A stretch of 15,307 nucleotides of DNA, from positions 1 to 15,307 of the IMG/VR virus record IMGVR_UViG_2617270953_000003, one strand, 5' to 3'. The notes beneath the pieces are model-generated. The model saw nothing but the letters and a program-made list of their open reading frames with translations. It had not been told where the DNA came from and did not search any database. Of this stretch, positions 347 through 15,307 are shown piece by piece. The first letter of the stretch is position 1; every line of letters starts with the position of its first letter. Position numbers and translations under genes: made by a program. Origin of the DNA: a virus. Lineage: Duplodnaviria; Heunggongvirae; Uroviricota; Caudoviricetes.

Positions 347-360
347 TTCTTGTCTCCAAT

Positions 361-382
361 AAAAAACCGCCATCAGGCGGCT
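361..382 (-). terminator. intrinsic terminator (5-bp GC stem ccgcc/ggcgg, 4-nt loop, T6 tail on minus strand)
   Basis: Plus strand reads aaaaaa-ccgcc-atca-ggcgg; read on the minus strand this is a hairpin followed by TTTTTT. Confidence 0.55.
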
Positions 383-446
383 TGGTGTTCTTTCAGTTCT
401 TCAATTCGAATATTGGTTACATTGTTTTCATATATGAATAAATAAA

Positions 447-626: not shown

Positions 627-722
627 ATCACTACCTCCAAAGCATGAGTGAGATGACAACGTAACATTGATTGGAGATTAACAATAGATTGCTGATGTAA
701 AAGATATGTATAAGCTTCGCTT

Positions 723-1361
723 TCAAAGTGGAGGCTCTGGTAGCGGCATCCAGTGTGACGGCTCACATACCCCCTCAACACCATTCATGTAAAAGAATTG
801 AAATAACCCTTTACCTTTGTGAAACCCTACCATCTGCTCTTTAGTGTCTGAGCAATAAACCAAAACATCTTCTTCGTTTGGCATTCGATCACTACAGCTT
901 ATCCAACCATCAGGAGTTACCGGAGAGTTGCCACCGGGAATATTTTCCGGAATATTTTGTTGTGCGTTTTGTGGTTGTTCGGATTTACCCTGAAGCATGG
1001 CGGCGCGGCAGGCGTTCCAGCCAGCTGTTCGCCCAAGCGCGTAAACTTCAGATGGCTCAAGATAATCAATGTCATGCCCATCCTCATCGTCGTTCTCAGG
1101 TAATGCAGCAGGTACTACCGGTACTGGCGGAGCGGCGTAGACTTCAATAATCCCATTATCAATAGGCCATTCCCCATCCTTGATGTAGTCACTTGTGCCG
1201 TCAACTTGCTGTTCTGCAATGTGGAATGCGCCAATAGGCTCTGCTTCCAGCGATGCCAGTGCGATTTCATAAGCCCGACGCTCAATATTGTCTCGGACGT
1301 CCAGGCTGCCTATACGCTCTTTGATTTCTTTAATCAGTTCTTTGTCGGTGAACGTTGTCAT
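723..1361 (-). CDS. DUF551-like phage protein (212 aa)
   Basis: C-terminal ...VLVYC...VGF...FF...HWMPLPEPP resembles the DUF551 signature common in lambdoid early-left regions; AAGGA RBS 5-6 nt upstream of the ATG. Confidence 0.55.
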   Translation of the reverse strand: MTTFTDKELIKEIKERIGSLDVRDNIERRAYEIALASLEAEPIGAFHIAEQQVDGTSDYIKDGEWPIDNGIIEVYAAPPVPVVPAALPENDDEDGHDIDYLEPSEVYALGRTAGWNACRAAMLQGKSEQPQNAQQNIPENIPGGNSPVTPDGWISCSDRMPNEEDVLVYCSDTKEQMVGFHKGKGLFQFFYMNGVEGVCEPSHWMPLPEPPL

Positions 1362-1371
1362 GTGTTAGTCC

Positions 1372-1635
1372 TTATCCTGCTGTGCTTTCAACTGATGAGG
1401 GGAATAAAATCTTTTCATCAAATCCGGCATTCATATCATGGACAGCAACACACCAATCCACCGACGAACGATTATCAAGAGCCTCCATGATTTCATCCAT
1501 GCGGCGTAGGTCATAAAGGTAAATGCTTTTATCGCCAATGGTGTAAAAACCAATTTTTTTCGGTGATGGACAGCGATCAAGAACGTCCTGTAATTCGCTC
1601 AACCATGCTTGTTCTTTTTTTGTCAAAGTTGCCAT
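1372..1635 (-). CDS. hypothetical protein (87 aa)
   Basis: ATG at 1633-1635 with AAGGAG RBS at 6 nt spacing; tightly packed against flanking genes. Confidence 0.5.
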   Translation of the reverse strand: MATLTKKEQAWLSELQDVLDRCPSPKKIGFYTIGDKSIYLYDLRRMDEIMEALDNRSSVDWCVAVHDMNAGFDEKILFPSSVESTAG

Positions 1636-1636
1636 A

Positions 1637-2128
1637 TCACTCTCCTTTGATGCGAATGCCAGTGGTACTCATTCTCCTGATTTCCCAGAGCACACGAGGA
1701 ACACCACCGTTTCCGACCGGATCGCGCTTACTCCGCATGGCGACGCTTGATTCCGCCCAGCTTTTTCTTGGAGGAAGCTCTTTCACACGAACAAAACCAG
1801 CTGCGCGAAGAGATGCTCCTGATTCATCTGCCTGGGTGTACGTAATACAACGTTGATAACCCATAGCCTTTGCTGCCCGCCAGACAGCACCATAAAGCGC
1901 GCTGTTAGCGTTGCGTTCTCCTGTGGTACATGTGCGATTTACTTCAAGCGTTAATCCATCGTCCAAATGTCGTGCAACAGGTCGACCAGCTGTCGCCACA
2001 CCTATCAATTCTCCGGCATTATTTCTCAGACCAATGCTGAATTTATGCCCCACTGGTGGTTTATTGTGTCGGTGGTGCTGTGCGATAAATTCCTGCGCCG
2101 CTTTCAGCGTTATAGGTGAAATGACCAT
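1637..2128 (-). CDS. hypothetical protein (163 aa), possibly GNAT-fold-like
   Basis: ATG at 2126-2128 with AGGAGG RBS; overlaps the upstream stop by 1 nt (TGATG). Weak GNAT-like pattern (...GVATAG..., ...ALYGAVWRAAKAMGY...AAGF). Confidence 0.5.
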   Translation of the reverse strand: MVISPITLKAAQEFIAQHHRHNKPPVGHKFSIGLRNNAGELIGVATAGRPVARHLDDGLTLEVNRTCTTGERNANSALYGAVWRAAKAMGYQRCITYTQADESGASLRAAGFVRVKELPPRKSWAESSVAMRSKRDPVGNGGVPRVLWEIRRMSTTGIRIKGE

Positions 2129-2607
2129 CACTCAGACTCCTCCTTGATGCCAGCGGCGCGGGAATCATTCCATCGCTTTACTTCTTCACTAATTACGTCA
2201 ATGCATTCTTTCGAATCCATTAGGTAATCTTCATCAAAAAGACGTTCCTGTTCGTTTTCTATCGCAACAATGATTGCTTCAACTAATTTTTGTGCCTGAG
2301 AATCACTTTCTAACTCTGCAATGCGCTTACTCCCATCCGAGATAACACCTTCGTAATACTCACGCTGCTCGTTGAGTTTTGATTTTGTCTCCTCAAGCTC
2401 AACACGCAGCTTCCCTACCGTTAGCGCAATATCCTCGTTCTCCTGGTCGCGGCGTTTGATGTATTGCTGGTTTCTTTCCCGTTCATCCAGTAGTGCCAGC
2501 ACAACCTGAGGTGTGACCTTCATACGAAATGCCAGCAATTTTTGTGGTGTGGCTGCTATTTTTATTGCTTCTGCCGCATCACGCAGTGCCTGATAGTCAA
2601 TTGTCAT
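2128..2607 (-). CDS. coiled-coil-rich phage protein (159 aa), Ea22-type slot
   Basis: ATG at 2605-2607 overlaps the upstream stop (ATGA). Sequence rich in E/K/R/L/Q heptad-like stretches. Confidence 0.5.
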   Translation of the reverse strand: MTIDYQALRDAAEAIKIAATPQKLLAFRMKVTPQVVLALLDERERNQQYIKRRDQENEDIALTVGKLRVELEETKSKLNEQREYYEGVISDGSKRIAELESDSQAQKLVEAIIVAIENEQERLFDEDYLMDSKECIDVISEEVKRWNDSRAAGIKEESE

Positions 2608-3248
2608 TCTCGCCATCCTTCACAGTTGTAATCACTACAGCCTTCAAAATCATATGGGCTGTACTGCCAGGAGATTTTTCCGCAATGCGGACAATTCCAA
2701 CGCACCTTCCCGCTTCGCGACTTCTTTCTTCTGTTCTGCTCTTTCAACCAGTCAGGCATGACCAAACCTGCGCCCTGAACCATTGTTCTGCGGTTAAAGT
2801 TATTGATATTGAACGTCCTGCGCTTTGCTGCATCAGCAATGGAAAATGGCAACCAAACTATTCCTGGTTCGTTTTTGTTGGCGACGCTAAAGATGGTCGC
2901 TTTACTGAAGTCATCTGTTGGCAATCCACCGTGTTGAAGCCAGTAAACATCGTTGCCGTTCCAGCTACCTTTTTTGTAGGCCACATACGCAGTGCAATCT
3001 GACTCAATCAGGCTTTCTGTAGGGATGTACTGGCAATCAACGTGCCACACTGCCATTGCATCCACGCTATCAGCGCAAACAGGCTGATCGATATCTCGCC
3101 CACAATTCCAGGCTTTTTGGGCTTCTTCCAGCGTGTAAACATGAGCGCGATCGATATCAGAACTGTAACCATTGCCGTTATGGCAATGGAATGAAGCGTT
3201 ATTGCCCACAGTTTCACGCGAGCACATCATGTAAAAACGGTTAGTCAC
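2604..3248 (-). CDS. hypothetical protein with Cys/His clusters (214 aa), GTG start
   Basis: AAGGAGG RBS (plus-strand cctcctt at 3255-3261) 6 nt upstream of GTG at 3246-3248, overlapping the upstream stop (GTGA). C-terminal CPHCG...C...C and N-terminal CHNGNG motifs. Confidence 0.5.
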
Positions 3249-3412
3249 TGGCTGCCTCCTTTGCGCCACATCGCATTCAGATATTTGTTTTCATTCACTG
3301 ATGGAAAAGAATTTCTCTTAAGTAATTCCTCTCTCGATGGCATTGGCTTTACGCGTTGGCGAATAATCATTTCTGCCGGAAGAATGCCGGGATTGTATGC
3401 AAGTCCTCTCAT
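3245..3412 (-). CDS. small hypothetical protein (55 aa)
   Basis: ATG at 3410-3412 with GAGGA RBS at 7 nt spacing; the longer tracked ORF (to 3562) overlaps the upstream gene and lacks an RBS. Confidence 0.35.
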
Positions 3413-3422
3413 GGTAAATTCC

Positions 3423-3716
3423 TCAGTCATTACTGATAGCGCCATAACGTGAGCGGTAATTACGCAGGCGCGGGTCAATTTCAGGGAAGTGGGTATATGT
3501 GGCTTTGCGGAATGGTCGGATTGATGTCTGGTAAATTCGCTCGCGTTCTTCTTTCTCTGCAAGCCATATACAGTGGCGAAATTCCTTTTCCTCTTTCGTT
3601 TCCTGCGGTAGAGACATTATCCGGTCGTAGTTTTTTCTGAATTTATCCAGCACCTCCGATACGGAATTGCCGGAACAGCGGCGCACGTCGTCCGCACCAT
3701 ACAGAGGCGCTGGCAT
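3423..3716 (-). CDS. Abc2-like (anti-RecBCD) candidate, 97 aa
   Basis: Sits promoter-distal to erf, where P22-like phages carry abc genes; similar size to P22 Abc2; AAGGA RBS. Identity is from recall and position only. Confidence 0.45.
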
Positions 3717-3739
3717 AATTAAATCCTTATTGTTCTAAA

Positions 3740-4123
3740 TCAGAATGGGATGGAATCGTCGTATACAGGAGTGTTCTGCTGGTTACTACTTTGCCGCTGC
3801 GGGCCATTTCCTGAAGCTGCAAATCCAATCTTTGCATTCAGTAATTCAAGAGTGATTGATTGACCATTTTGCCCCTGATAAACATCAACCCTGATGTTTT
3901 CTCCGGTAATTTCCACAATTCCACCTTCAACAAGAACACTACGGTAGTAATCCGCTTGCGCTCCCGGCTTGGCAAATACAACGGCGCTGTAGTTTATCCA
4001 TTCTTTCTTTTTTGTCTGGCGATCGTAATACTGAACGCCAGCACGGATGTTGAATCCGATATTTTCCCCGGCCTGAAACTCTCTTGCGGGCTTGTTTAGT
4101 CTTACAGTAATCGAATGTGCCAT
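3740..4123 (-). CDS. ssb: single-stranded DNA-binding protein (short SSB, 127 aa)
   Basis: C-terminal acidic tail ...PVYDDSIPF matches the SSB DDDIPF-type tail; ATG at 4121-4123 overlaps the erf stop (TAATG). Confidence 0.6.
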   Translation of the reverse strand: MAHSITVRLNKPAREFQAGENIGFNIRAGVQYYDRQTKKKEWINYSAVVFAKPGAQADYYRSVLVEGGIVEITGENIRVDVYQGQNGQSITLELLNAKIGFAASGNGPQRQSSNQQNTPVYDDSIPF

Positions 4124-4728
4124 TAAGCAGCCGCTCCTTCTAATTCGTCTCGTCTGATGTTGTAAACGTCCTGCGCTTTGTGCTGCTCCGGTGTGCCTTC
4201 GAGCATCTTCCACGCTTTGGCGAACGCCTGTTTAAGCTCTTCCACGGTGTTTTTCTGCATTGCTGCGTCAGTGAATGCTTTTAGAACCTGTTCAGGTGTA
4301 GGTGATGGTTTTGATTGCTTTGCTGCTGCGTTCTGCTGATGTTTATGCTCGTCTGTATCTGCATCTTTCGCATCATCAATGCCGAACAAACCATTAAGGC
4401 AATACTTGCGCGCATAAGAGCTTGTAGCTCCAGTAACTTGTGCAGAATCCATTCCTTTCTTGCTTTCTTCCTCTCTTGCGAGAGCGGTTGCCGTATGACT
4501 GTTTTCGCCATCGGTAATAGTTGCCGTGGCTTTCACGTAATACCGATCACCAATCAACACAACTTCATCGCTGATTGATAAAAACAGGCCATTCAGTAAC
4601 GGCTTAACGCCTTCAAGAATGTCTTCGCAGCTTCTGTATTTATATTTACCGAATGAGTTGTACTGATTCTTTGGCGCGTTCAGATTCTCCTGAATAGCTG
4701 CCAGTCTTGCATAAAATTCTTTGCTCAT
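4123..4728 (-). CDS. erf: Erf-family single-strand annealing recombinase (201 aa)
   Basis: N-terminus MSKEFYARLA...NAPKNQYNSFGKYKYRSCEDILEGVKPLL matches my recall of P22 Erf; ATG at 4726-4728. Confidence 0.8.
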   Translation of the reverse strand: MSKEFYARLAAIQENLNAPKNQYNSFGKYKYRSCEDILEGVKPLLNGLFLSISDEVVLIGDRYYVKATATITDGENSHTATALAREEESKKGMDSAQVTGATSSYARKYCLNGLFGIDDAKDADTDEHKHQQNAAAKQSKPSPTPEQVLKAFTDAAMQKNTVEELKQAFAKAWKMLEGTPEQHKAQDVYNIRRDELEGAAA

Positions 4729-4829
4729 ATGATTGTTCTCAGAATGGACACGGCCCAAGGAAATAACGCTGATTTAATACTTCTACTCGGGACAAATTAA
4801 GGCATACCCGCATTCCTTCGCGGTCGCCA

Positions 4830-4988
4830 TTATGGCGATACCAGAGAGCTTTCTGCGTGTACATGCGTCTCTGTAACTTGCTCTCCTTCACTGTGGTTGC
4901 AAGTGACATGAATATCTCCTTCGTTACCGATTAAATCTTTCATCTGACGAATGAATTCTTCGTCTGACCAGTTATCTGTAAAACTCAT
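4830..4988 (-). CDS. small hypothetical protein (52 aa) in the kil position
   Basis: ATG at 4986-4988 overlaps the stop of the CIII-like gene (ATGA coupling); no recognisable family. Confidence 0.4.
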   Translation of the reverse strand: MSFTDNWSDEEFIRQMKDLIGNEGDIHVTCNHSEGEQVTETHVHAESSLVSP

Positions 4989-5155
4989 GGGCGGCCTTGT
5001 TGTTTCAAAATATCCCAAAGCTTTTCGAGCAAGCTTTTCATTCTTGGTTGTTTAAAGTCTGCTCCGGTTAAAATATTTTTTCGTGAATGCTGCACCGATA
5101 AAATCGGGTTGAAAGGGCGAACCGATGCCGCCCCTGCAATAGCGAACTGTTGCAT
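4985..5155 (-). CDS. CIII-like protein (56 aa; FtsH/HflB inhibitor family)
   Basis: Start MQQFAIAG resembles lambda CIII MQYAIAG; amphipathic LLEKLWDILKQ segment; AAGGAG RBS 6 nt upstream of ATG at 5153-5155. Confidence 0.5.
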   Translation of the reverse strand: MQQFAIAGAASVRPFNPILSVQHSRKNILTGADFKQPRMKSLLEKLWDILKQQGRP

Positions 5156-5238
5156 AGGATGCTCCTTCTGTTTGATTGCATAACGAAAATGCCTCTCGTG
5201 AAGCATTATTGGTATGCGGTAAAGCCGCGCTTGGCGGC

Positions 5239-5655
5239 TTATTTGAAGATTTCTATGAAATCAAGAACTGATGATATTTCGTGGTTGAACGATTTTCTTT
5301 TGTATCTTTCTATCGCAGAATCCACCTGGTGTTTATAGTCATCGTCGTTTGAGTATTTAACGAAGCATTCTATTGTCTCAGGCGTTACAGCTATAAGGCT
5401 CCACCAACCTTCATCAGATTGATATTCAAATCCCATGCTTTCAAGCCATCCAGCATATTTCCCTCCAGCATCTTGCCAGTGTGTTTTTTCTGCAAGGAAG
5501 CTGTTAACCGTCATATGTGCATCAAGGCATTTATCCAACTGTTTACCATTAAGTAGCCATGCGCTGACAGTTGCACAACCCAAATCAACTGATTGAGTAG
5601 AGATATTGAATTGGTCGTAATTATCTGGATTAACCAGAATATCTGTAATTTTCAT
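5239..5655 (-). CDS. hypothetical acidic, Trp-rich protein (138 aa), ea10-position cargo
   Basis: ATG at 5653-5655 with GGAGG RBS at 4 nt; immediately preceded by an intrinsic terminator; no family recognised. Confidence 0.55.
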   Translation of the reverse strand: MKITDILVNPDNYDQFNISTQSVDLGCATVSAWLLNGKQLDKCLDAHMTVNSFLAEKTHWQDAGGKYAGWLESMGFEYQSDEGWWSLIAVTPETIECFVKYSNDDDYKHQVDSAIERYKRKSFNHEISSVLDFIEIFK

Positions 5656-5667
5656 AATTCCTCCGTC

Positions 5668-5696
5668 AAAAAAATTGCCCTCACACTGGAGGGCAA
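5668..5696 (-). terminator. intrinsic terminator within the pL operon (8-bp stem ttgccctc/gagggcaa, 6-nt loop, T7 tail on minus strand)
   Basis: Perfect 8-bp inverted repeat at 5675-5682 and 5689-5696 with an A7 run at 5668-5674 (T7 on the minus strand). Confidence 0.6.
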
Positions 5697-5830
5697 AGAA
5701 GATTTCCAATAATCAGAACAAGTCGGCTCCTGTTTAGTTACGAGCGACATTGCTCCGTGTATTCACTCGTTGGAATGAATACACAGTGCAGTGTTTATTC
5801 TGTTGTTTATGCCAAAAATGAAGGCCACCA

Positions 5831-6031
5831 TCAGGCAGCCTTGTTGTTCTGTTTACCAAGTTCTCTGGCAATCATTGCCGTCGTTCGTATTGCCCATTTA
5901 TCGACATATTTCCCATCCTCCATTACAGGAAACATTTCTTCAGGCTTAACCATGCATTCCGATTGCAGCTTGCATCCATTGCATCGCTTGAATTGTCCAC
6001 ACCATTGATTTTTATCAATAGTCGTAGTCAT
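5831..6031 (-). CDS. ral: Ral restriction-alleviation protein (66 aa)
   Basis: Sequence MTTTIDKNQWCGQFKRCNGCKLQSEC... matches my recall of lambda Ral; correct size and position downstream of N. Confidence 0.6.
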   Translation of the reverse strand: MTTTIDKNQWCGQFKRCNGCKLQSECMVKPEEMFPVMEDGKYVDKWAIRTTAMIARELGKQNNKAA

Positions 6032-6101
6032 ACGGATAGTCCTGGTATTGTTCCATCACATCCTGAGGATGCTCTTCGAACTCTTCAAATTCTTCTTCCA
6101 T
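6015..6101 (-). CDS. acidic 28-aa ORF (lambda orf28-like), overlaps ral start
   Basis: Hand-translated MEEEFEEFEEHPQDVMEQYQDYPYDYDY; GAGGTGA RBS 4-5 nt upstream of ATG at 6099-6101. Below the track's size cutoff. Confidence 0.3.
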   Translation of the reverse strand: MEEEFEEFEEHPQDVMEQYQDYPYDYDY

Positions 6102-6159
6102 ATATCACCTCAAATAAGTGGTTTGCTGCCTAATTTTATTTTCTGGCGACCAACACAAG

Positions 6160-6543
6160 TCATCTCGCCGTCAGTTGTTTTGATTTCCGGTATCCTGCTG
6201 CGTAAAGAGCTACATTTGGAAGACATACACCAGTTTCTGGTTGCTTATGTCCAAACTCATTCGCGTACACAATGGCCGCTCTCTCCAGATTGCGTCTGTA
6301 TTCTTTCTGTTGCCAGATCACGTCCTGTGCCATGAACTTAATTGGCTTAGCGTCTTCTATGCGCTCAGGCGTTTCGTGAGTACCTTTAGCCTGAATCTGC
6401 GCTCTGCTTAGAGTAGGGCGGTGTAATACTTCTGAACTTATTGCTTCTTCGCGGGCCAGTACGCCGTTAGCTAATGCCTTTGCCTTTAAACGCTCACGAC
6501 GACGAGAACGTGAATTGCCTTTGAACTGAGTTCTGCGTGTCAT
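6160..6543 (-). CDS. N: N-type transcription antiterminator, P22 gene-24-like (127 aa)
   Basis: AGGAGG RBS 6 nt upstream of ATG at 6541-6543; N-terminal arginine-rich motif RRTQFKGNSRSRRRERLKAK; C-terminus ...VALYAAGYRKSKQLTAR resembles P22 N; first gene after pL and nutL. Confidence 0.7.
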   Translation of the reverse strand: MTRRTQFKGNSRSRRRERLKAKALANGVLAREEAISSEVLHRPTLSRAQIQAKGTHETPERIEDAKPIKFMAQDVIWQQKEYRRNLERAAIVYANEFGHKQPETGVCLPNVALYAAGYRKSKQLTAR

Positions 6544-6671
6544 ATAGACCTCCTGGTGAACTTTGGCGGTGAATACAGCCGGGCGACTAACTCCGGTAGC
6601 GTAATCATTGCAAAGCGCCTCCGCCGAGAAGGTTAGCTTCTGCATTCACCCCAAAGTTCACTTTGGTTATT

Positions 6672-6686
6672 GCGCTTTGTCAGCGC
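6672..6686 (-). promoter_or_regulatory. nutL boxB hairpin, P22 type (GCGCUGACAAAGCGC on the transcript)
   Basis: Plus strand gcgctttgtcagcgc is the reverse complement of GCGCTGACAAAGCGC: 5-bp stem with GACAA loop, between pL and N. Confidence 0.7.
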
Positions 6687-6754
6687 CGTAGATTCATATT
6701 TGAATCGTTGTATATTCACCGCCCTGGTGAGTAGTGCGTCCTGCTGATGTGTTT

Positions 6755-6817
6755 AGTATCACCGCCAGTGGTATTTATGTCAACACCGCTAGAGATAATT
6801 CATCACCGCAGATGGTT
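6755..6817 (-). promoter_or_regulatory. OL1-OL2-OL3 operators and pL promoter (lambda immunity type)
   Basis: 17-mers tatcaccgccagtggta (6757-6773), caacaccgctagagata (6781-6797), catcaccgcagatggtt (6801-6817); on the minus strand -35 TTGACA (6778-6783) and -10 GATACT (6755-6760). Confidence 0.85.
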
Positions 6818-6902
6818 ATCTGTATGTTTTTTATATGAATTTATTTTTTGCAGGGGTGCATTGTTTGGTAGGTGAGAGATCTGAACTGCTATGTTTAGTG
6901 AG

Positions 6903-6932
6903 TTGTATCTATTTATTTTCAAATAGATACAA
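6903..6932. repeat. perfect 12-bp inverted repeat with 6-bp spacer (ttgtatctattt-attttc-aaatagatacaa)
   Basis: Arms 6903-6914 and 6921-6932 are exact reverse complements; AT-rich; lies between the tImm-like terminator and OL3. Confidence 0.6.
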
Positions 6933-6970
6933 TTGGTTATGTGTTCTTGGGTGAGGGGGATCGTGAGGCA

Positions 6971-6995
6971 AAGAAAACCCGGCTCTGTGGCCGGG
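6971..6995 (-). terminator. tImm-like intrinsic terminator ending the cI operon
   Basis: Stem cccggc/gccggg (6978-6983, 6990-6995), 6-nt loop, TTTTCTT tail on the minus strand; begins about 10 nt after the stop at 7004. Confidence 0.6.
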
Positions 6996-7003
6996 AATAA
7001 CAT

Positions 7004-7382
7004 TTAGGAATCAAGGTCAGGTAGCATGATTTTCTCAATCAACGTCAATGCCCTTTGGTCTCGTTCAGCAAAATATTTAGGAGCGTACTGAGGCAGCCAC
7101 ACTTCGTTGAAGTATTGTTTGAAATCTGCAATATTCGTTTGGGTATAGACGTACCGGGAATGTCCGGCCATCTGGGTACTCATGGTTATATGTTGGGAAT
7201 GTCTTCGGCTCACCCCCCCGGTTGTCACGGAGCCATTGCGAGAAAACCCTACCCTCTGAAATATCAGGGACCATTTTTTCTGGCAGCGTATATCCGGCCT
7301 GTTCAAGTGGCGCAACCAAGTTAAACGTCAGTTCATTAAGCATAGAAAAGTGCGTATGAGGAACTCTGCCTCGGTTTGTCAT
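7004..7382 (-). CDS. rex-slot ORF split across two frames: frame A 7077-7382 (101 aa) and frame B 7004-7327 (+1 offset); possible frameshifted gene
   Basis: Two overlapping minus-strand ORFs offset by +1 share a C7 tract (7213-7219; G7 on the coding strand) and an A6/T6 tract (7275-7280). Frame B ends 10 nt before the terminator; frame A has a poor RBS. Confidence 0.35.
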
Positions 7383-7421
7383 ATACCGCTTAAGGTGGAT
7401 AGGGAGTTCGGCAGGCGCTCT

Positions 7422-7763
7422 TTAACCTGACATCCACTCACGCACCCATCTCGATACTTGCACTGCAAATTTTGGAGATAGCCACTGAGCTAAATTAATT
7501 GCGATGTCTGGATGAACCCAAGTCCCTTGATTCTCTGCTCTTCCGCCTTTAAATGATTGAATTAACTCCGATATGGGAATCCCCATATCGCGTGATAATT
7601 CATCAAAAAAATCTTGTGTTGTTTTTAGTCGTGTATAGTCAGCAAGTAGCTTCCCCGCAGACTTGCACATCGCGGTGGCATTGATGTATCCGTCTTTGGT
7701 GCGAAGATGGATGACTTCTCCATCAACTTCTCTAGCGATTAATGCAAGTTGAAATTGTGTCAT
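7422..7763 (-). CDS. KilA-N domain protein (113 aa), directly downstream of cI
   Basis: Motifs DGYINATAMCK...GTWVHPDIAINLAQWLSPKFAVQVSRWV are typical of the KilA-N (APSES-like) DNA-binding domain; AGGA RBS; starts 31 nt after the cI stop. Confidence 0.75.
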   Translation of the reverse strand: MTQFQLALIAREVDGEVIHLRTKDGYINATAMCKSAGKLLADYTRLKTTQDFFDELSRDMGIPISELIQSFKGGRAENQGTWVHPDIAINLAQWLSPKFAVQVSRWVREWMSG

Positions 7764-7794
7764 AAATCATCCTATTACGTGAAAAATAAAACAA

Positions 7795-8511
<717 letters not shown>

Positions 8512-8518
8512 TTAAATC

Positions 8519-8584
8519 TATCACCGCAAGGGATAAACTTCTAACACCGTGCGTGTTGACTATTTTACCTCTAGCGGTGATAAT
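8519..8584. promoter_or_regulatory. OR3-OR2-OR1 operators with divergent pRM (minus) and pR (plus) promoters
   Basis: OR3 tatcaccgcaagggata (8519-8535), OR2 taacaccgtgcgtgttg (8542-8558), OR1 tacctctagcggtgata (8566-8582); pR -35 TTGACT (8556-8561) and -10 GATAAT (8579-8584) with 17-bp spacing. Confidence 0.9.
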
Positions 8585-8608
8585 GGTTGCCTGTACTAAG
8601 GAGGTTGT

Positions 8609-8809
8609 ATGGAACAACGCATAACCCTGAAAGATTATGCAATACGCTTTGGGCAAACCAAGACGGCTAAAGATCTCGGCGTATATCAAAGCGCGATTAA
8701 CAAGGCCATTCATGCAGGCCGAAAGATTTTTTTAACTATAAACGCTGATGGAAGCGTTTATGCGGAAGAAATAAAGCCCTTCCCAAGTAACAAAAAAACA
8801 ACTGCATAA
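8609..8809 (+). CDS. cro: Cro repressor, lambda type (66 aa)
   Basis: Sequence matches my recall of lambda Cro apart from about two conservative substitutions; AAGGAGG RBS. Confidence 0.95.
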
Positions 8810-8816
8810 GTAACAC

Positions 8817-8862
8817 CGCTCTTTTCACAATGGACATTCGTCCTACGTCGCTGACAAAGCGA
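8817..8862 (+). promoter_or_regulatory. nutR: boxA-like CGCTCTTTT (8817-8825) and P22-type boxB tcgct-gacaa-agcga (8848-8862)
   Basis: Same GACAA-loop, 5-bp-stem hairpin as nutL; located between cro and the cII-like gene. Confidence 0.65.
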
Positions 8863-8892
8863 GCCCCAAGATATCTGACCAACTAAGGCCAT

Positions 8893-8908
8893 ATGCGTTT
8901 CCACGCAT
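8893..8908 (+). terminator. weak hairpin (atgcgt-ttcc-acgcat) in the tR1 position
   Basis: 6-bp stem and 4-nt loop with a poor T tail; lambda tR1 is Rho-dependent, so a role here is uncertain. Confidence 0.25.
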
Positions 8909-8946
8909 ACCTTTCAACTAACTATTCACTATTGGAAAATTAACAA

Positions 8947-9243
8947 ATGACACAAGCAAGTTATAGCAAGCCAACACAGCGAGAAATTGATCGCGCTGAA
9001 ACTGATTTACTCATCAACCTGTCAACGCTTACCCAGCGCGGTCTGGCAAAGATGATTGGCTGTCATGAATCGAAGATAAGCAGAACGGACTGGAGGTTTA
9101 TTGCTTCGGTCTTGTGTGCTTTCGGAATGGCATCAGACATCAGTCCGATTAGCAGGGCTTTTAAGTATGCATTGGATGGAATCACAAAGAAAAAATCCCC
9201 GGCCGCCACCGAGGATTTTAAGCAAATTGATATGCAATTCTGA
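8947..9243 (+). CDS. cII: CII-like transcriptional activator (98 aa), not the lambda allele
   Basis: Helix-turn-helix region ...GLAKMIGCHESKISRTDW... and C-terminal KKKSPAATEDFKQIDMQF parallel lambda CII, but overall sequence is divergent. Confidence 0.7.
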   Translation: MTQASYSKPTQREIDRAETDLLINLSTLTQRGLAKMIGCHESKISRTDWRFIASVLCAFGMASDISPISRAFKYALDGITKKKSPAATEDFKQIDMQF

Positions 9244-9275
9244 GGTCATTACTGGATCAATCTACAGGAGTAATT

Positions 9276-9437
9276 ATGACAAAACGTCGTAAGAAATACC
9301 AGGAAAAAGAAGAGATTCGACACCCTGATTCACCTGAGGGATTAGTGGTAGCCGCAGCAAATAACAGGGCGTTCGCAGAGCGCCTTGTTGGTGTTTACAG
9401 ACTAGCCAAAGTAGGAGTGAAACATGGGCGTCGTTAA
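9276..9437 (+). CDS. small basic ORF (53 aa) between cII and the replication gene
   Basis: Hand-translated MTKRRKKYQEKEEIRHPDSPEGLVVAAANNRAFAERLVGVYRLAKVGVKHGRR; CAGGAG RBS 5 nt upstream of the ATG; 3' end overlaps the replication-gene start by 14 nt. Confidence 0.35.
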   Translation: MTKRRKKYQEKEEIRHPDSPEGLVVAAANNRAFAERLVGVYRLAKVGVKHGRR

Positions 9438-10314
9438 GTTAGCTGATTACAGGCATAACCCTGTACAACATCAGGAGGCATCCAGTATGGGGTATGTCTC
9501 TATACACCGCCAGTTTATGGACAGCAGGCTCTATAAGGACTCTCAGGCAGTACATCTTTGGCTTCACTTAATCCTCAAGGCTAATCACGAATCTACTGTC
9601 GTCAATACGGATATCGGTCCGATAACTGTTGATCGCGGTCAGATGATAACTGGACGCCCGTCGCTGGTCAGAGAAACATTCATCCCCGACAACAAAGTTC
9701 GGAGCTTATTACGGACTTTTGAGTCGAAAGGTATGCTTAATATTTGCTCGATGGGGAAGAAATTTAGCCTGTTTACAATCGTTAAATATGACGATTTTCA
9801 GGCAAAAAATTGTCCAACGGTTGTCCAACAGTTGTCCAACGCAAACACCAGTAATGGTGCGGCTCTCAGCGGAGATTGTCCAACGGTTGTCCAACAGTTG
9901 TCCATAAACAATAATATAAATAATATCTCTAATACTGACGTATTAGAGAGTGCTACAGCAGACAAAAAGTCTGACAAGAAAAAACCTTCCGTCAGCTGTC
10001 AGGATGTTGTCGATGCTTACCACGAAATCCTTCCTGAAGCGCCAAGAATCCGCGCACTGAATGACAAGCGTAAAAACCAGATCCGAACGTTCTGGCGCAA
10101 AGCCGGAGTGATAACCCGCCAGCTTGACGGACATGGGTTCACGATGCAGGACTGGAGAAATTATTTGAGCTACGTAGGCGAAAATTGCCGATGGATGTTC
10201 GAAGAGCGTCCAAACCATCAACGCGGAACTGTCTGGCACAAAAAGGGATTTGATTTCCTGCTTAACGATAATACCTACCTGAAAGTTCGTGAGGGTGAAC
10301 ACGATGACCGATAA
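9424..10314 (+). CDS. replication initiator (O-like, non-lambda allele) with the origin inside the gene
   Basis: AGGAG RBS; O-type N-terminal region; iteron array embedded in the coding sequence (encoding repeated CPTVVQQLS); followed by a DnaB-family helicase gene. Confidence 0.8.
   Translation: MGVVKLADYRHNPVQHQEASSMGYVSIHRQFMDSRLYKDSQAVHLWLHLILKANHESTVVNTDIGPITVDRGQMITGRPSLVRETFIPDNKVRSLLRTFESKGMLNICSMGKKFSLFTIVKYDDFQAKNCPTVVQQLSNANTSNGAALSGDCPTVVQQLSINNNINNISNTDVLESATADKKSDKKKPSVSCQDVVDAYHEILPEAPRIRALNDKRKNQIRTFWRKAGVITRQLDGHGFTMQDWRNYLSYVGENCRWMFEERPNHQRGTVWHKKGFDFLLNDNTYLKVREGEHDDR
9810..9950. repeat. origin iterons: two copies of a 3 x TTGTCCAAC array (9810-9840 and 9876-9906) plus AT-rich tract (9906-9950)
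   Basis: ttgtccaacGGttgtccaacAGttgtccaac occurs twice about 66 bp apart (last unit of the second copy is ttgtccata), followed by aaacaataatataaataatatctctaatactgacgtattagag. Confidence 0.8.
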
Positions 10315-11740
10315 TTTTTATGCGCCGCCCCATAGCATCGAGGCAGAGCAGGCGGTGATTGGTGGATTGCTTCTGGATGATGACAGCAGTGAGCGCGTCC
10401 AGAAGGTTCTGGCGATGCTGAAGCCTGATTCATTTTACAGCCGGCCACACAAAATCCTTTTCGAAGAAATAACCAGAATGCACCGGGAGCAAAAGCCAGT
10501 AGATGGCCTGACGCTTTTCGATGAACTGGAGCGTAAATCGTTAACTGTGTCTGTTGGCGGTTTTGCTTATATCGCTGAGATCGCAAAGAACACGCCAAGC
10601 GCAGCAAACATCGTTGCCTATGCAATGCAGGTTCGTGAAACCGCAATGGAACGCTACGCCATCAACCGCATGACTGAAGCGACGGAATTGCTCTATTCCC
10701 GCAACGGAATGACTGCAACGCAGAAGTACGAAGCTATTCAGTCGATTTTCACGCAACTGACAGACCATGCAAAAACCGGATCGCGTCGCGGCCTTCGTTC
10801 ATTTGGTGAGGTCATGGAAGACTGGGTTAGCGACCTTGAGAAGCGATTTGACCCATCAGGCGAACAACGGGGAATGAGCACAGGGATCCCATCGCTGGAC
10901 AGGATGCTGTCACCGAAAGGTCTGGTGAAAGGCTCTCTGTTTGTCATTGGCGCTCGCCCTAAGATGGGGAAAACGACGCTATACAGCCAGATGGCAATCA
11001 ATTGCGCAGTGCATGAGAAAAAGCCCGCTTTGATGTTCAGCCTTGAAATGCCAGGTGATCAGATACTGGAAAAACTGGTAGGGCAGAAGTCTGGTGTTAA
11101 CCCGAATATTTTTTACCTTCCGGCGACAAATGACGCTGATGACGGCTATCAGGGTGATTACGATGGTGACTTCAACAGGGCGATCGAAACAGCCAATCGC
11201 TTGAGTGAAATCGACCTGCTTTACATCGACGACACGCCGGGATTATCTCTGGCTCAAATCGTCAGCGAAAGTCGTCGAATCAAGCGAGAAAAAGGATGTG
11301 TTGGCATGATTCTGGTCGATTACCTGACACTAATGACCGCTGAGAAGGCCGATCGCAACGACCTTGCTTACGGCATGATCACCAAAGGACTGAAGAACCT
11401 TGCCAAAGAGCTTGATTGTGTTGTTGTGCTTCTGACACAGCTTAACCGCGCACTGGAAAGCCGAACCAATAAACGCCCATTACCAAGTGACTCCCGAGAT
11501 ACAGGGCAGATTGAACAGGATTGCGATTATTGGGTTGGGATCCATCGTGAAGGTGCTTTTGATGACAGTGTTCCACCTGGTGAAACCGAACTAATCCTTC
11601 GTCTCAATCGTCATGGCAATACCGGCACGGTGTATTGCATTCAGGCAAATGGAGCTATTTATGACACAGACCAACAGTCTGCTGAAATGCGCCGCCGTGA
11701 ACGCGAGGAACCGCAGTCCAAGAAGAAAGGAGGATTCTGA
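10304..11740 (+). CDS. DnaB-family replicative helicase (P22 gene-12-like), 478 aa
   Basis: N-terminus ...FYAPPHSIEAEQAVIGGLLLD... is the classic DnaB start; Walker A GARPKMGKT; ATG at 10304 overlaps the end of the upstream gene. Confidence 0.9.
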   Translation: MTDNFYAPPHSIEAEQAVIGGLLLDDDSSERVQKVLAMLKPDSFYSRPHKILFEEITRMHREQKPVDGLTLFDELERKSLTVSVGGFAYIAEIAKNTPSAANIVAYAMQVRETAMERYAINRMTEATELLYSRNGMTATQKYEAIQSIFTQLTDHAKTGSRRGLRSFGEVMEDWVSDLEKRFDPSGEQRGMSTGIPSLDRMLSPKGLVKGSLFVIGARPKMGKTTLYSQMAINCAVHEKKPALMFSLEMPGDQILEKLVGQKSGVNPNIFYLPATNDADDGYQGDYDGDFNRAIETANRLSEIDLLYIDDTPGLSLAQIVSESRRIKREKGCVGMILVDYLTLMTAEKADRNDLAYGMITKGLKNLAKELDCVVVLLTQLNRALESRTNKRPLPSDSRDTGQIEQDCDYWVGIHREGAFDDSVPPGETELILRLNRHGNTGTVYCIQANGAIYDTDQQSAEMRRREREEPQSKKKGGF

Positions 11741-11768
11741 TGACCATCTACATCACTGAGCTAATAAC

Positions 11769-11800
11769 AGGCCTGCTGGTAATCGCAGGCCTTTTTATTT
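11769..11800 (+). terminator. tR2-like intrinsic terminator (8-bp stem aggcctgc/gcaggcct, 8-nt loop, TTTTTATTT tail)
   Basis: Perfect inverted repeat at 11769-11776 and 11785-11792 followed by a T-rich run, between the helicase gene and ninB. Confidence 0.65.
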
Positions 11801-11816
11801 GGGGGAGAGGGAAGTC

Positions 11817-12257
11817 ATGAAAAAACTAACCTTTGAAATTCGATCTCCGGCACATCAGCAAAACGCTATTCACGCAGTACAGCAAATCCTTCCAGACCCA
11901 ACCAAGCCAATCGTAGTGATCATTCAGGAGCGCAACCGCAGCTTAGACCAGAATCGGAAGCTTTGGGCTTGCCTTGGTGACGTCTCTCGTCAGGTTGAAT
12001 GGCATGGGCGTTGGCTGGATGCAGAAAGCTGGAAGTGTGTGTTTACCGCAGCATTAAAGCAGCAGGACGTTGTTCCTAACCTTGCCGGGAATGGCTTTGT
12101 GGTAATAGGCCAGTCAACCAGCAGGATGCGTGTAAGCGAATTTGCGGAGTTATTAGAGCTTATACAGGCATTCGGTACAGAGCGTGGCGTTAAGTGGTCA
12201 GACGAAGCGCGACTGGCTCTGGAGTGGAAAGCGAGATGGGGAGACAGTGCTGCATGA
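11817..12257 (+). CDS. ninB: NinB (Orf family recombination mediator)
   Basis: Protein MKKLTFEIRSPAHQQNAIHAVQQILPDPTKPIVV... matches my recall of lambda NinB; real start is the internal ATG at 11817. Confidence 0.9.
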   Translation: MKKLTFEIRSPAHQQNAIHAVQQILPDPTKPIVVIIQERNRSLDQNRKLWACLGDVSRQVEWHGRWLDAESWKCVFTAALKQQDVVPNLAGNGFVVIGQSTSRMRVSEFAELLELIQAFGTERGVKWSDEARLALEWKARWGDSAA

Positions 12258-12781
12258 CTATCAAATCAAATACGCCAGCACACGACAAGGACTGCTGGCA
12301 AACGCCGCTCTGGCTTTTTGATGCACTGGATATTGAGTTTGGATTCTGGCTGGATTCGGCAGCGAGCGACAAAAATGCTCTGTGCGCTCACTGGCTAACT
12401 GAGGCTGACAACGCGCTCAATTCTGAGTGGATAAGCCACGGTGCAATCTGGAATAACCCACCGTACAGCAATATCAGGCCGTGGGTGGAAAAAGCCGCTG
12501 AGCAGTGCATACAACAGCGACAGACGGTAGTGATGCTTGTGCCAGAGGATATGTCAGTCGGATGGTTCAGCAAGGCTCTGGAGAGTGTTGACGAAGTTCG
12601 TATTATCACTGATGGACGGATTAATTTTATCGAACCATCGACAGGGCTGGAGAAAAAGGGAAACAGCAAAGGCTCCATGCTGCTGATTTGGCGACCGTTC
12701 ATCAGTCCTCGACGGATGTTTACTACCGTATCCAAAGCGGCATTGATGGCGATCGGGCAGGGCGTCAGGAGGGCAGCATGA
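12254..12781 (+). CDS. dam: phage DNA N6-adenine methyltransferase (Dam family), in the ninC/ninD slot
   Basis: Catalytic NPPY motif (IWNNPPYSN); ATGA overlap with the ninB stop; size about 175 aa. Confidence 0.8.
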
Positions 12782-12960
12782 GACGACAGCGACGAAGTAT
12801 CACCGACATCATCTGCGAAAACTGCAAATACCTTCCAACGAAGCGCTCCAGAAATAAATGCAAGCCAATCCCAAAAGAATCTGACGTAAAAACCTTCAAC
12901 TACACGGCTCACCTGTGGGATATCCGGTGGCTTAGAGAACGTGCGAGGAAAACAAGGTGA
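12778..12960 (+). CDS. ninE: NinE (60 aa)
   Basis: [27 protein letters not shown]... matches my recall of lambda NinE; ATGA overlap with the dam stop. Confidence 0.85.
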
Positions 12961-13127
12961 TTGACCAAAATCGAAGTTACGAACAAGGAAGTGTCGAGCG
13001 AGCTTTAACGTGCGCTAACTGCGGTAAGAAGCTGCATGTGCTGGAAGTTCACGTGTGTGAGCACTGCTGCGCAGAACTGATGAGCGATCCGAATAGCTCA
13101 ATGTACGAGGAAGAAGACGATGAATGA
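12957..13127 (+). CDS. ninF: NinF (56 aa, GTG start, four-Cys motif)
   Basis: Hand-translated (V/M)[55 protein letters not shown]; GTGA overlap with the ninE stop; resembles lambda NinF. Confidence 0.8.
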
Positions 13128-13842
13128 GTTAATAAATGGCAATGCCATCAAAATGACAAGCATTGAAATCGCTGAGTTGGTTGGTAAGCGTCATGACAAT
13201 GTGAAACGTACCATCGAAACGCTGGCTAAAAATGGTGTTATCCGGCTTCCTCAAATTGAGGATTGTGGAAGAATCAATGGGTTAGGCTTAAATCAAAGTT
13301 TTTGTGTGTATGTATTCGAAGGCGAACAAGGAAAGCGAGACAGTATTGTCGTTGTAGCCCAGTTGTCGCCGGAATTCACCGCTCGTCTTGTTGACCGTTG
13401 GCGAGAGCTTGAAGAAACTGCGGTTAATATCCCCAAAACGCTACCAGAAGCGTTGCGCCTTGCTGCTGATCTTGCTGAGCAGAAAATGCAACTGGAAAAC
13501 CAGCTCGCAATTGCCGCACCTAAAGTTGAGTTTGCCGATCGCGTTGGCGAGGCCAGCGGAATTTTGATTGGAAACTTTGCAAAGGTTGTTGGAATTGGTC
13601 CAAACAAACTGTTTGCGTGGATGCGCGATCACAAAATCCTTATTGCTTCAGGTTCCCGGCGCAATGTGCCAATGCAGGAATATATGGATCGCGGCTATTT
13701 CACAGTGAAAGAAACAGCGGTCAACACAAATCACGGAATACAGATATCGTTCACCACAAAAATCACCGGCCGTGGTCAACAGTGGCTGACCAGAAAGCTG
13801 CTCGATAACGGAATGCTGAAAGTAACAGGGGAGGCTGCTTAA
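13120..13842 (+). CDS. phage antirepressor-like protein (Rha-type N-terminal region plus KilAC/ANT-type C-terminal region), Roi-like, 240 aa
   Basis: N-terminus ...MTSIEIAELVGKRHDNVKRTIETLAKNGVI... is Rha-family-like; C-terminal half resembles antirepressor KilAC; GAGGAAG RBS; overlaps the ninF end. Confidence 0.65.
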   Translation: MNELINGNAIKMTSIEIAELVGKRHDNVKRTIETLAKNGVIRLPQIEDCGRINGLGLNQSFCVYVFEGEQGKRDSIVVVAQLSPEFTARLVDRWRELEETAVNIPKTLPEALRLAADLAEQKMQLENQLAIAAPKVEFADRVGEASGILIGNFAKVVGIGPNKLFAWMRDHKILIASGSRRNVPMQEYMDRGYFTVKETAVNTNHGIQISFTTKITGRGQQWLTRKLLDNGMLKVTGEAA

Positions 13843-14132
13843 TGGCTAACCTACGCAAAGAAGCGCGCGGCAGAGAATGCCAGGTACGTATTTACGGCGT
13901 ATGCAATGGTAATCCTGAAACTACAGTTCTGGCACATTACCGGATGGCTGGAATTTGCGGAACGGGAATGAAGCCTGACGACCTGATCGGCGCATGGGCT
14001 TGTAGCGCGTGTCACGATGAAATCGATCGACGTACCCATAACCTCGACAACAAAGACGCCAGACTTTACCACCTCGAAGGCGTAATCAGGACGCAGGCGA
14101 TACTGCTGAAGGAGGGGAAGATTAAGTCATGA
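13842..14132 (+). CDS. ybcO: YbcO-like DUF1364 protein (putative nuclease, 96 aa)
   Basis: MANLRKEARGRECQVRIYGVCNGNPETTVLAH...CSACHDEIDRR resembles DLP12 YbcO; TAATG overlap upstream and ATGA overlap downstream. Confidence 0.7.
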   Translation: MANLRKEARGRECQVRIYGVCNGNPETTVLAHYRMAGICGTGMKPDDLIGAWACSACHDEIDRRTHNLDNKDARLYHLEGVIRTQAILLKEGKIKS

Positions 14133-14524
14133 AAACCTACCGAATAAAATTGCCGTGGCCTCCTTCAAACAACCGATATTGGCGACACTCAAGAGGGATC
14201 CACTACATCAGCGACTGGGGGAAGAGATACCGAAAAGAAGTAATCGAATTAATCCAGCAACAACAGCTAGACATCAAAATCACACCTCGCATCAGAATAA
14301 CCATCCACGCAGCACCTCCCGATAACCGCAAACGAGATTTGGACAATCTGCCCAAAGCCGTTTTTGACGCACTCACCAGTGCGGGCTTCTGGCTGGATGA
14401 CGGTCAGATAGACGATATGCGCATCAAGCGCTATCAGGCGATTAAAGGTGGAATGCTTGTGTTGGTTGTGACTGAAACATGCGGGAGTTTGCCAATGATT
14501 ACAGAGCTACTGGAGGCCGCATGA
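14129..14524 (+). CDS. rusA: RusA Holliday-junction resolvase (131 aa)
   Basis: M.TY.I.LPWPPSNNRYWRH...RDLDNL.KAVFDALTSAGFWLDD matches the RusA signature. Confidence 0.85.
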   Translation: MKTYRIKLPWPPSNNRYWRHSRGIHYISDWGKRYRKEVIELIQQQQLDIKITPRIRITIHAAPPDNRKRDLDNLPKAVFDALTSAGFWLDDGQIDDMRIKRYQAIKGGMLVLVVTETCGSLPMITELLEAA

Positions 14525-14727
14525 CGTTCTCAGTAAAAACCATTCCAGACATGCTCGTTGAAGCATACGGAAACCAGACAGAAGTAGCACGCAGACTGAA
14601 ATGTAGTCGCGGCACGGTAAGAAAATACGTTGATGATAAAGACGGGAAAATGCACGCCATCGTCAACGACGTTCTCATGGTTCATCGCGGATGGAGTGAA
14701 AGAGATGCGCTATTACGAAAGAATTGA
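14521..14727 (+). CDS. ninH: NinH (68 aa)
   Basis: [68 protein letters not shown] matches my recall of lambda NinH; ATGA overlap with the rusA stop. Confidence 0.85.
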
Positions 14728-15307
14728 TGGCAGCAAATACCGAAATATTTGGGTAGTTGGCGATCTGCACGGTTGCTACACGAACCTGATGAACAAACTG
14801 GATACGATTGGATTCGACACCAAAAAAGACCTGCTTATCTCGGTTGGCGATTTGGTCGATCGCGGTACAGAGAACGTTGAATGCCTGGAATTAATCACAT
14901 TCCCCTGGTTCATAGCTGTACGTGGAAACCATGAGCAAATGATGATTGATGGCTTATCAGAGCGTGGAAACGTCAATCACTGGCTGCTTAATGGCGGTGG
15001 CTGGTTCTTTAATCTCGATTACGACAAAGAAATTCTGGCTAAAGCTCTTGCCCATAAAGCAGATGAACTTCCGTTAATCATTGAACTGGTGAGCAAAGGT
15101 AAAAAATATGTTATCTGCCACGCCGATTATCCTTGTGACGAATACGAGTTTGGAAAGCCAGTTGTTCATCAGCAGGTAATCTGGAACCGCGAACGAATCA
15201 GCAACTCACAAGACGGGATCGTAAAAGAAATCAAAGGAGCGGACACGTTCATCTTTGGTCATACGCCAGCAGTGAAACCACTCAAGTTTGCCAACCAAAT
15301 GTATATC
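14705..15307 (+). CDS. ninI: Ser/Thr protein phosphatase NinI (lambda PPase / orf221 family), 3' end beyond window
   Basis: Frame 2 from ATG at 14705 translates [29 protein letters not shown]...GDLVDRG...RGNHE..., the metallophosphatase GDxHG/GDxxDRG/GNHE motifs; absent from the track because no stop occurs before the window end. Confidence 0.85.

Follow-up and report, generated by a model that had tools for sequence, protein, structure and literature searches.

We report that the window, that is, the whole stretch of 15,307 nucleotides analysed here (positions 1 to 15,307 of the IMG/VR virus record IMGVR_UViG_2617270953_000003), contains an element that is very probably the theta-replication origin of a lambdoid phage, of the HK022/HK620/Sf6/L-type module, located in the linker-coding part of the replication initiator gene. 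The element combines two blocks of 11-bp direct repeats (iterons) with an AT-rich tract and a perfect palindrome (Table 1), and an origin at this place is already known, as a putative rep_origin in the records of near-identical phages. The features that emerge from the comparative analysis described below appear to extend this annotation incrementally.

The DNA of the initiator gene is 98.4-99.3% identical to the corresponding genes of HK542, ECP1, mEpX2, HK106, HK75, IME10 and Sf6 (98.5% for Sf6 gene 43), and likewise 98-99% identical, as DNA, to the O gene of mEp234. The Sf6 record (AF547987) contains a rep_origin at 28385-28480, which corresponds to 9809-9904 of the window and is accompanied by the note 'putative; repeat region reminiscent of the phage lambda origin; similar to phage HK620'; in the HK620 record (NC_002730), a two-part putative rep_origin (10369-10464) is located at the equivalent place in the O gene. 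These public annotations span the two repeat blocks only, without the AT tract or the palindrome. Furthermore, six 11-bp repeats (TGTCCAACGGA) in gene 18 of phage L, which share the TGTCCAAC core with the window, have been called "likely the origin" (PMC8022706); the same core is also found in ST64T. In the searchable literature, we found no experimental test of an origin of the HK022/HK620/Sf6/L type, the prediction for phage L being the only statement on its location (PMC8022706).

Gene neighbourhood and domain layout of the initiator

The window is a mosaic lambdoid early region that matches the early regions of isolated phages, the closest ones being HK106, mEp234, mEp506 and HK542. Upstream of the initiator gene lie, in this order, a gene for a cI-type repressor (Peptidase_S24 and HTH_3 domains), cro, cII and a small conserved ORF; Sf6 gene 42 occupies the equivalent place, and similar small ORFs are found ahead of the initiator in HK620, HK97 and P22. 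The initiator matches phrog_345 ('replication initiation O-like') over its full length (E = 1.6e-85), and the gene that follows encodes a helicase of the DnaB family, with a score of 582.6 bits against TIGR03600 (phage_DnaB; cutoff 498.65). The ATG at 10304 coincides with the annotated start of Sf6 gene 44 and implies an 11-nt overlap of the helicase gene with the end of the initiator gene; in the program-made list of ORFs, the first start of the helicase ORF is a GTG at 10289. Thus, the ori-within-O arrangement with iterons unlike those of lambda, which had been proposed in a sequence-only reading of this DNA, is supported by the phrog_345 initiator, the adjacent DnaB-family helicase, the rep_origin annotations of Sf6 and HK620, and an order of parts like that in lambda.

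Table 1 Features of the origin region, in window coordinates
Feature	Coordinates	Strand	Description
Small conserved ORF upstream of the initiator	9276..9437	+	phrog_1331, E = 2e-37; homologue of HK97 gp53 and Sf6 gene 42
Replication initiator gene	9424..10314	+	O/gp18 analogue of the HK022/Sf6/L type; 296 aa; phrog_345
N-terminal winged-helix domain (predicted)	9490..9783	+	aa 23-120; presumed iteron-binding domain
Iteron block 1	9809..9841	+	three 11-bp direct repeats, ATTGTCCAACG GTTGTCCAACA GTTGTCCAACG
Inter-block spacer	9842..9874	+	33 nt; length constant, sequence variable across lineages
Iteron block 2	9875..9907	+	three 11-bp units, the last degenerate, ATTGTCCAACG GTTGTCCAACA GTTGTCCATAA
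AT-rich tract	9904..9926	.	ATAAACAATAATATAAATAATAT; 23 nt, 4% GC; presumed DNA-unwinding element
Palindrome	9926..9949	.	perfect 10-bp stem and 4-nt loop, TCTCTAATAC tgac GTATTAGAGA
C-terminal helical domain	9991..10302	+	aa 190-293; presumed helicase-recruiting domain; phrog_24933 and C-terminal part of phrog_345
Phage DnaB-family replicative helicase	10304..11740	+	P22 gp12 analogue; TIGR03600; Pfam DnaB and DnaB_C

The initiator produced no Pfam match above the cutoff and no NCBIfam assignment, and its N-terminal domain yielded no Pfam match even at E <= 10. A sub-threshold hit to DUF7376 was the only outcome of the Pfam search with the N- and C-terminal domains. Neither sequence nor profile searches retrieved solved structures of this initiator family or of lambda O. 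An AlphaFold2 model built with 22 homologues has two domains predicted with confidence (aa 23-120 and 190-293, pLDDT ~80-90), the first of which is predicted to adopt a winged-helix fold, joined by a linker (aa 125-188) with pLDDT below 50; the iterons, the AT tract and the palindrome all fall within the codons of this linker. The origin DNA thus probably encodes a disordered interdomain linker and would lie where the gene is under the least constraint at the protein level.

Iteron blocks and their co-variation with the N-terminal domain

Two identical 31-bp blocks, each with three direct repeats at 11-bp periodicity, and an AT-rich element after them had been recognized in the sequence-only reading. 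The two blocks are indeed present and the period is correct, but the identical segment is 30 bp long (ATTGTCCAACGGTTGTCCAACAGTTGTCCA, at 9809-9838 and 9875-9904) rather than 31, given that the next base is A after block 1 and T after block 2 (the bases in front of the blocks, A and G, respectively, differ as well), and the repeats comprise five exact copies and a degenerate one rather than six. Specifically, exact TTGTCCAAC starts at 9810, 9821, 9832, 9876 and 9887, and the sixth unit, starting at 9898, reads TTGTCCATA. The starts of the blocks are 66 bp apart, that is, 6 x 11. The AT-rich element is where it had been reported, and the iterons and the AT tract, as well as the palindrome, are all contained within the initiator ORF, in agreement with the proposed location inside a coding sequence. 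By chance, ~0.12 exact copies of TTGTCCAAC are expected per 15.3 kb on both strands, and no exact copy is found outside the blocks across the whole window; matches with one mismatch occur elsewhere five times, compared to 4.25 expected for the whole window.

An alternative to a cis-acting element would be that the repeat is a mere tandem peptide repeat, or slippage-prone filler of the linker, with no function as DNA. Such filler might be expected in a region that encodes a low-confidence, probably disordered linker and that varies among alleles by 22-aa blocks, from one to three. However, the three units of block 1 (TGT CCA ACG GTT GTC CAA CAG TTG TCC AAC, encoding CPTVVQQLSN) are read in three different frames, so that no peptide is repeated; because the 11-bp period places the three units of each block in the three reading frames, the repeat is selected as DNA rather than as peptide. 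Moreover, the DNA units are uniform within a lineage and differ between lineages in step with the N-terminal domain, and retention of a perfect palindrome through compensatory changes would not be expected of an unconstrained linker. The comparative sequence data largely refute this explanation, which we regard as barely credible.

Relatives of the window locus were taken from phage records, from a set with a single genome for each species (33 loci) and, as 80 near-identical loci, from IMG/VR, and were anchored on the conserved KYD[DE][FY]Q motif. The layout of two blocks with three units each, at the same position in the gene, is shared by ~37 lineages, down to ~40% protein identity, and the order of the parts is a short A/T run, three units, a 33-nt variable spacer, three units, the AT tract and the perfect palindrome. 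The 11-bp period and the 66-bp distance between blocks hold in ~35 of the 37 lineages, with a 12-bp period and blocks 68 bp apart in the Leclercia and Silvania lineages, and the same degeneracy of the sixth unit is seen in all related lineages.

The cores of the units fall into six classes (GTCCAA, TACCAG, TGCCAA, GTCCAG, ATCCAA and TACCAA) that coincide with groups of N-terminal domains: mean N-domain identity is 0.67-0.93 within a core class and 0.45-0.61 between classes, and identity of the C-terminal domain shows no such sorting. The sequence distance of the iterons between lineages correlates with the N-domain distance (Spearman 0.48-0.49, Mantel p = 0.0005) compared to only 0.02-0.04 for the C-terminal domain. 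A natural mosaic is provided by HK620, in which the C-terminal half of the initiator and the palindrome are nearly identical to those of the window, whereas the N-domain is only 47-49% identical and the iterons are of the TACCAGC type. These comparisons support the view that the repeat sequence and the N-domain together set the specificity of replication, and the earlier proposal that the iterons define this specificity gains backing from the same co-variation (Mantel r = 0.48-0.49, p = 0.0005). The origin of lambda, in which specificity likewise resides in the N-domain and the iterons, resembles that of the window in this respect.

The number of blocks is variable. Natural alleles with one block (274 aa), two blocks (296 aa) and three blocks (318 aa) differ by steps of exactly 66 bp, or 22 aa; one-block alleles include P0036, on 33 contigs, and P0041, on 26, and three-block alleles are represented by P0001-P0022 and L117. 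The existence of these alleles implies that the 3+3 arrangement is not obligatory. Among the best 15 of 43 records of isolated phages, no one-block origin was found, and all have two blocks, spanning 167 nt.

Such variation in block number might also be expected of a titration element, and the co-variation of iterons with the N-domain ties the two to each other without showing that replication initiates at the repeats. Accordingly, it could be argued that the repeats bind the initiator mainly for control (autoregulation, titration, handcuffing or incompatibility) and that replication starts elsewhere in the phage. Against this stand the AT tract and the palindrome, which always follow the repeats, in the same order as in lambda, where the function is established, and the lack of further iteron copies in the window. 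The genetics of phage L, in addition, place the origin inside the replication region: according to genetic data cited in the study of this phage, the L replication region replaces that of P22 only as a whole and not by single genes (PMC8022706). We therefore consider a mainly regulatory role of the repeats to be improbable and retain the origin as the preferred interpretation.

Polymorphism among 74 distinct near-identical genes is distributed unevenly along the element. The AT tract, with 0 of 18 scored sites (9908-9925) variable, and the palindrome, with 1 of 24, are the least variable segments, and the spacer, with 13 of 33 variable sites, is the most polymorphic one; common polymorphism within the blocks occurs solely between the cores, at 9830 and 9896.

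Several further candidate elements in and around the blocks were rejected. A hairpin in the spacer, suggested by CACCAgtaaTGGTG in the window, is not conserved, the best stem in 36 distinct spacers having a mean of 3.58 bp compared to 3.40 bp in shuffled sequences. The dyad GTTGnnCAAC within the unit is not a general feature either, being confined to the TGTCCAAC class and absent from the other five core classes; because of this restriction, pairing between block 1 and block 2 in a fold of single-stranded DNA was disregarded. A promoter-like minus-strand sequence, TGGACA-N18-GACAAT, in each block agrees with the consensus at 9 of 12 positions, and five such sites in the region, compared to 3.1 expected, are at the chance level. 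This promoter-like sequence depends on the iteron core of the window's lineage. Finally, there are no DnaA boxes within ~2.5 kb of the origin; the nearest matches to TTATCCACA with at most one mismatch, at 5898, 5993 and 12426, are at the chance level.

A covarying palindrome adjoining the AT-rich tract

The AT tract, which is near-identical in all lineages compared, and the palindrome together form a segment (9904-9949) with a GC content of 20%, compared to 46% for the whole window. The palindrome, with arms at 9926-9935 and 9940-9949, is absent from the earlier sequence-only description of the region. It is one of two perfect hairpins with a stem of at least 10 bp in the window, compared to a mean of 0.12 in shuffled sequences, and is present at a constant offset in 40 of 40 related loci in addition to the window, with 9-10 perfect pairs and the loop T[GA]A[CA].

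Among 17 distinct lineages, compensatory changes are observed at all 10 of the 10 pairs. Pairing is retained in 97.1% of the cells, compared to 64% in shuffled alignments and 28-51% in controls with a displaced partner column; the covariation score amounts to 0.80 versus 0.18, and none of 500 shuffles reached 0.80. No one-sided substitutions were detected among the 170 cells of these 17 lineages; a single U-G pair, like the unpaired cells, is confined to the outermost position. Since G-U intermediates would be anticipated in an RNA helix with this much divergence, we interpret the palindrome as being under selection as DNA, in the form of a duplex palindrome or of hairpins on both strands.

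The same data bear on the possibility that the palindrome works as RNA, either as a leftward intrinsic terminator or as a hairpin through which the translation or processing of the initiator mRNA is modulated. A scan of the minus strand flags a terminator-like structure, with a 10-bp stem and the T-rich tail TATTATTTAT, and in lambda, the leftward strand likewise has the T-rich strand of the AT tract after the palindrome. However, with G-C at only 3 of its 10 stem pairs and a tail interrupted by As, the terminator would be weak, and a leftward promoter downstream is neither known nor predicted at more than the chance level. Furthermore, the lack of changes of the G-U type fits a DNA palindrome or hairpins on both strands better, and a search against Rfam families gave no match in the window. 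Hence, a role as RNA appears unlikely, and selection on the DNA is the reading that we adopt for the palindrome.

Divergence of the palindrome tracks that of the C-terminal domain (r = 0.48, p = 0.0005) but not that of the N-domain (r = 0.12) or the helicase (r = 0.00), which could reflect either simple linkage or a functional tie to the C-terminal domain. Divergence of the C-terminal domain itself is uncorrelated with that of the helicase (r = -0.02), providing no support for a specific pairing of these two. With the iterons travelling with the N-domain and the palindrome with the C-terminal domain, the joint between the mosaic cassettes is placed in the nearly universal AT tract.

It might then be asked whether the AT tract and the adjacent segments serve chiefly as a joint for recombination, a 'boundary sequence' at which cassettes of N-domain plus iterons are reassorted with C-domain cassettes, rather than as an unwinding element. 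The two associations (r = 0.48, p = 0.0005 each), with the joint in the AT tract, point in this direction, as do the misc_recomb features of the lambda record, which mark junctions of hybrid phages at 39157 and 39165, past the AT tract and before the palindrome. A joint at this place is, however, compatible with origin function, and conservation of that function would itself create the shared homology used by recombination; moreover, the equivalent tract of lambda is an established unwinding element (see also PMC12663957). A tract maintained primarily for recombination is thus quite improbable, and an unwinding element remains the preferred interpretation.

Relation to other origins and a possible mechanism

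The lambda origin, located in the middle of the O gene, has the same sequence of parts as the window, namely iterons followed by an AT tract and a palindrome with a 4-nt loop. In lambda, these are four dyad-symmetric iterons (39034-39118), the AT tract and a 12-bp inverted repeat (GTCAGAGAATTC tggc GAATCCTCTGAC). The parts themselves differ: the lambda iterons are four dyad sites of ~19 bp at a spacing of 20-24 bp, in contrast to the 11-bp direct repeats in two triplets of the window, and the lambda AT tract is ~40 nt long compared to 23 nt. The initiators are also dissimilar, with no BLASTP similarity between the window protein and lambda O (E = 4.5). The PF04492 domain (Phage_rep_O), for which lambda O scores 123 bits, is absent from the window initiator; the only link is a remote one at the profile level, residues 16-169 of lambda O matching phrog_345 (E = 5e-17), a family that may contain chimeric members. 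In addition, lambda P is a loader that recruits the host DnaB, whereas the partner in the window is a helicase of the DnaB family itself, as in P22.

In P22 and HK97, the origin lies inside gene 18/O, with a phage DnaB-family helicase encoded downstream and the same three-part order as in the window. The iterons of these phages are nevertheless lambda-like, with four dyad sites of ~20 bp (at spacings of 20, 24 and 23 bp in P22), and their palindrome is of the CCCCCT..AGGGGG type. The published identity of L-type gp18 to P22 gp18 is only ~25% (PMC8022706). HK620 shares the layout of the window; HK620 and HK022 both have a different N-domain and TACCAGC-type iterons. Iterons, AT tract and palindrome follow one another also in phi80, 3W and SEN22, as in lambda, P22 and HK97, and at the sequence level, the three-part plan is general across the lambdoid origins examined.

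These comparisons suggest how the origin could work. The N-terminal winged-helix domains would occupy the six 11-bp units in head-to-tail orientation and on a single side of the DNA; the 11-bp register would keep the units on roughly the same face and may favour slight untwisting. The resulting nucleoprotein complex would distort the DNA such that the adjacent AT tract melts, whereupon the C-terminal domain would bring in the phage DnaB-type helicase, to be followed by the host primase and polymerase. The palindrome probably works as DNA, forming hairpins or a cruciform once the neighbouring tract opens, or serving as a symmetric duplex site. We tentatively propose, as a possibility that we hold with considerable reservation, that the distinctive traits of this origin are the combination of head-to-tail winged-helix binding on phased 11-bp repeats, unlike the dimer-on-dyad binding of lambda O and P22 gp18, with a palindrome that acts as an essential DNA hairpin or cruciform, for example, in helicase loading or stabilization of the open complex. 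We did not find these two features, the head-to-tail recognition of 11-bp units and the covarying palindrome, described for the HK022/HK620/Sf6/L-type family.

For annotation, the element marks the origin and the specificity class of common temperate phages of E. coli, Shigella and Salmonella, some Stx phages included. The six classes of iterons and N-domains, the joint in the AT tract, the one to three blocks and the covarying palindrome make up a system for investigating the evolution of origin specificity and the role of the palindrome. The question of the palindrome gains interest because a defence system, Lamassu, reportedly senses the origin of lambda while it replicates (PMC12663957); if the palindrome indeed forms a hairpin or cruciform, such structures could be the target of Lamassu and other origin-sensing defence systems.

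The window initiator has no sequence-level relation to plasmid Rep families; a predicted winged helix, direct repeats and an AT tract are present. Iterons of plasmids are usually 17-22 bp long and located outside or upstream of the rep gene, often together with DnaA boxes. The origin in the window differs from those of iteron plasmids in its units of 11 bp, its location within the coding sequence and its lack of a DnaA box within ~2.5 kb. The match in fold to the initiators of such plasmids (RepA_N type, of staphylococcal multiresistance plasmids; PDB 4pta) is at the level of the generic winged helix only.

Palindrome next to the AT-rich tract

The sequence-only reading assembled the putative origin from the iteron blocks and the AT-rich tract within the initiator gene and left out a perfect palindrome that is present immediately after this tract (see table). 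The palindrome is found at the equivalent offset in the related initiator loci L001-L038 and, between lineages, has undergone only compensatory Watson-Crick changes, which affect all 10 pairs; 97% of cells are paired, and no intermediates of the G-U type were detected in the palindrome pairs across lineages. Its divergence follows that of the initiator C-domain, not that of the N-domain or the iterons. In the lambda record (NC_001416; L121 in our comparison), two misc_recomb junctions are annotated at 39157-39166, between the AT tract and palindrome of that phage, and comparison of the sequences places a putative mosaic joint of the HK022/Sf6 family at the same relative position.

Features of the window and of related initiator alleles
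Feature	Position or alleles	Strand	Description
Palindrome	9926-9949		perfect; 10 bp, 4-nt loop; directly 3' of AT tract
Three-block initiators	P0001-P0022; also L117:2001-2954		318 aa
One-block initiators	P0032-P0042		274 aa
Gene overlap	10304-10314		11 nt; helicase ATG at 10304, initiator stop codon at 10312-10314
Terminator-like hairpin	9192-9219	minus	strong; 12 pairs and T-rich tail; overlaps cII 3' end
AT-rich palindrome	6903-6932		12-bp stem, 6-nt loop; leftward early region

Variation of the iteron blocks

Natural initiator alleles carry one, two or three iteron blocks of 66 bp (22 aa). Dozens of contigs bear an allele with a single block, among them contigs of Shigella flexneri and E. 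coli ST131. At positions 9830 and 9896, which lie between the cores (CAACAGTTG), both blocks of the window contain A, the minority allele, with G being the majority allele among relatives (67 of 74 at the former position and 68 of 74 at the latter). That the minority nucleotide is shared by the two blocks suggests that they have been subject to concerted evolution or gene conversion.

A variant putative origin with TTACCA-type units is found in L026 and L027, the loci from a Leclercia MAG and Silvania hatchlandensis, about 50-150 nt past the KYDEYQ codons. Here the period is 12 bp and the blocks are 68 bp apart, in contrast to 11 bp and 66 bp in the usual layout; because of the 12-bp period, the units are in frame and encode an N/D-Y-Q peptide repeat.

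Enterobacterial-type initiator genes were also encountered in an assembly labelled Chryseobacterium sp. 18061 (Bacteroidota; L009, 85% identical) and on a 501-bp contig labelled Catenulispora yoronensis (Actinomycetota; L037, 57% identical). Both labels probably stem from contamination or mislabelling and do not name the true hosts.

The initiator C-domain and the downstream helicase

Across 31 related loci, the C-domain and the helicase encoded downstream showed no correlation in their divergence (Mantel r = -0.02), as exemplified by L012 (C-domain identity 0.86, helicase identity 0.50) and L007 (0.46 and 0.85, respectively). Such a result would be unexpected if the contact between the C-domain and its helicase were highly specific. 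The overlap of the two genes suggests that their translation is coupled; in the mechanical ORF list, the helicase ORF starts from a GTG at 10289, as opposed to the ATG at 10304.

Other hairpins in the window

The terminator-like hairpin, for which an Rfam search returned no match, lies where lambda has the terminator of its oop RNA. The sole other perfect long palindrome of the window is the AT-rich one, with the arms TTGTATCTATTT and AAATAGATACAA.
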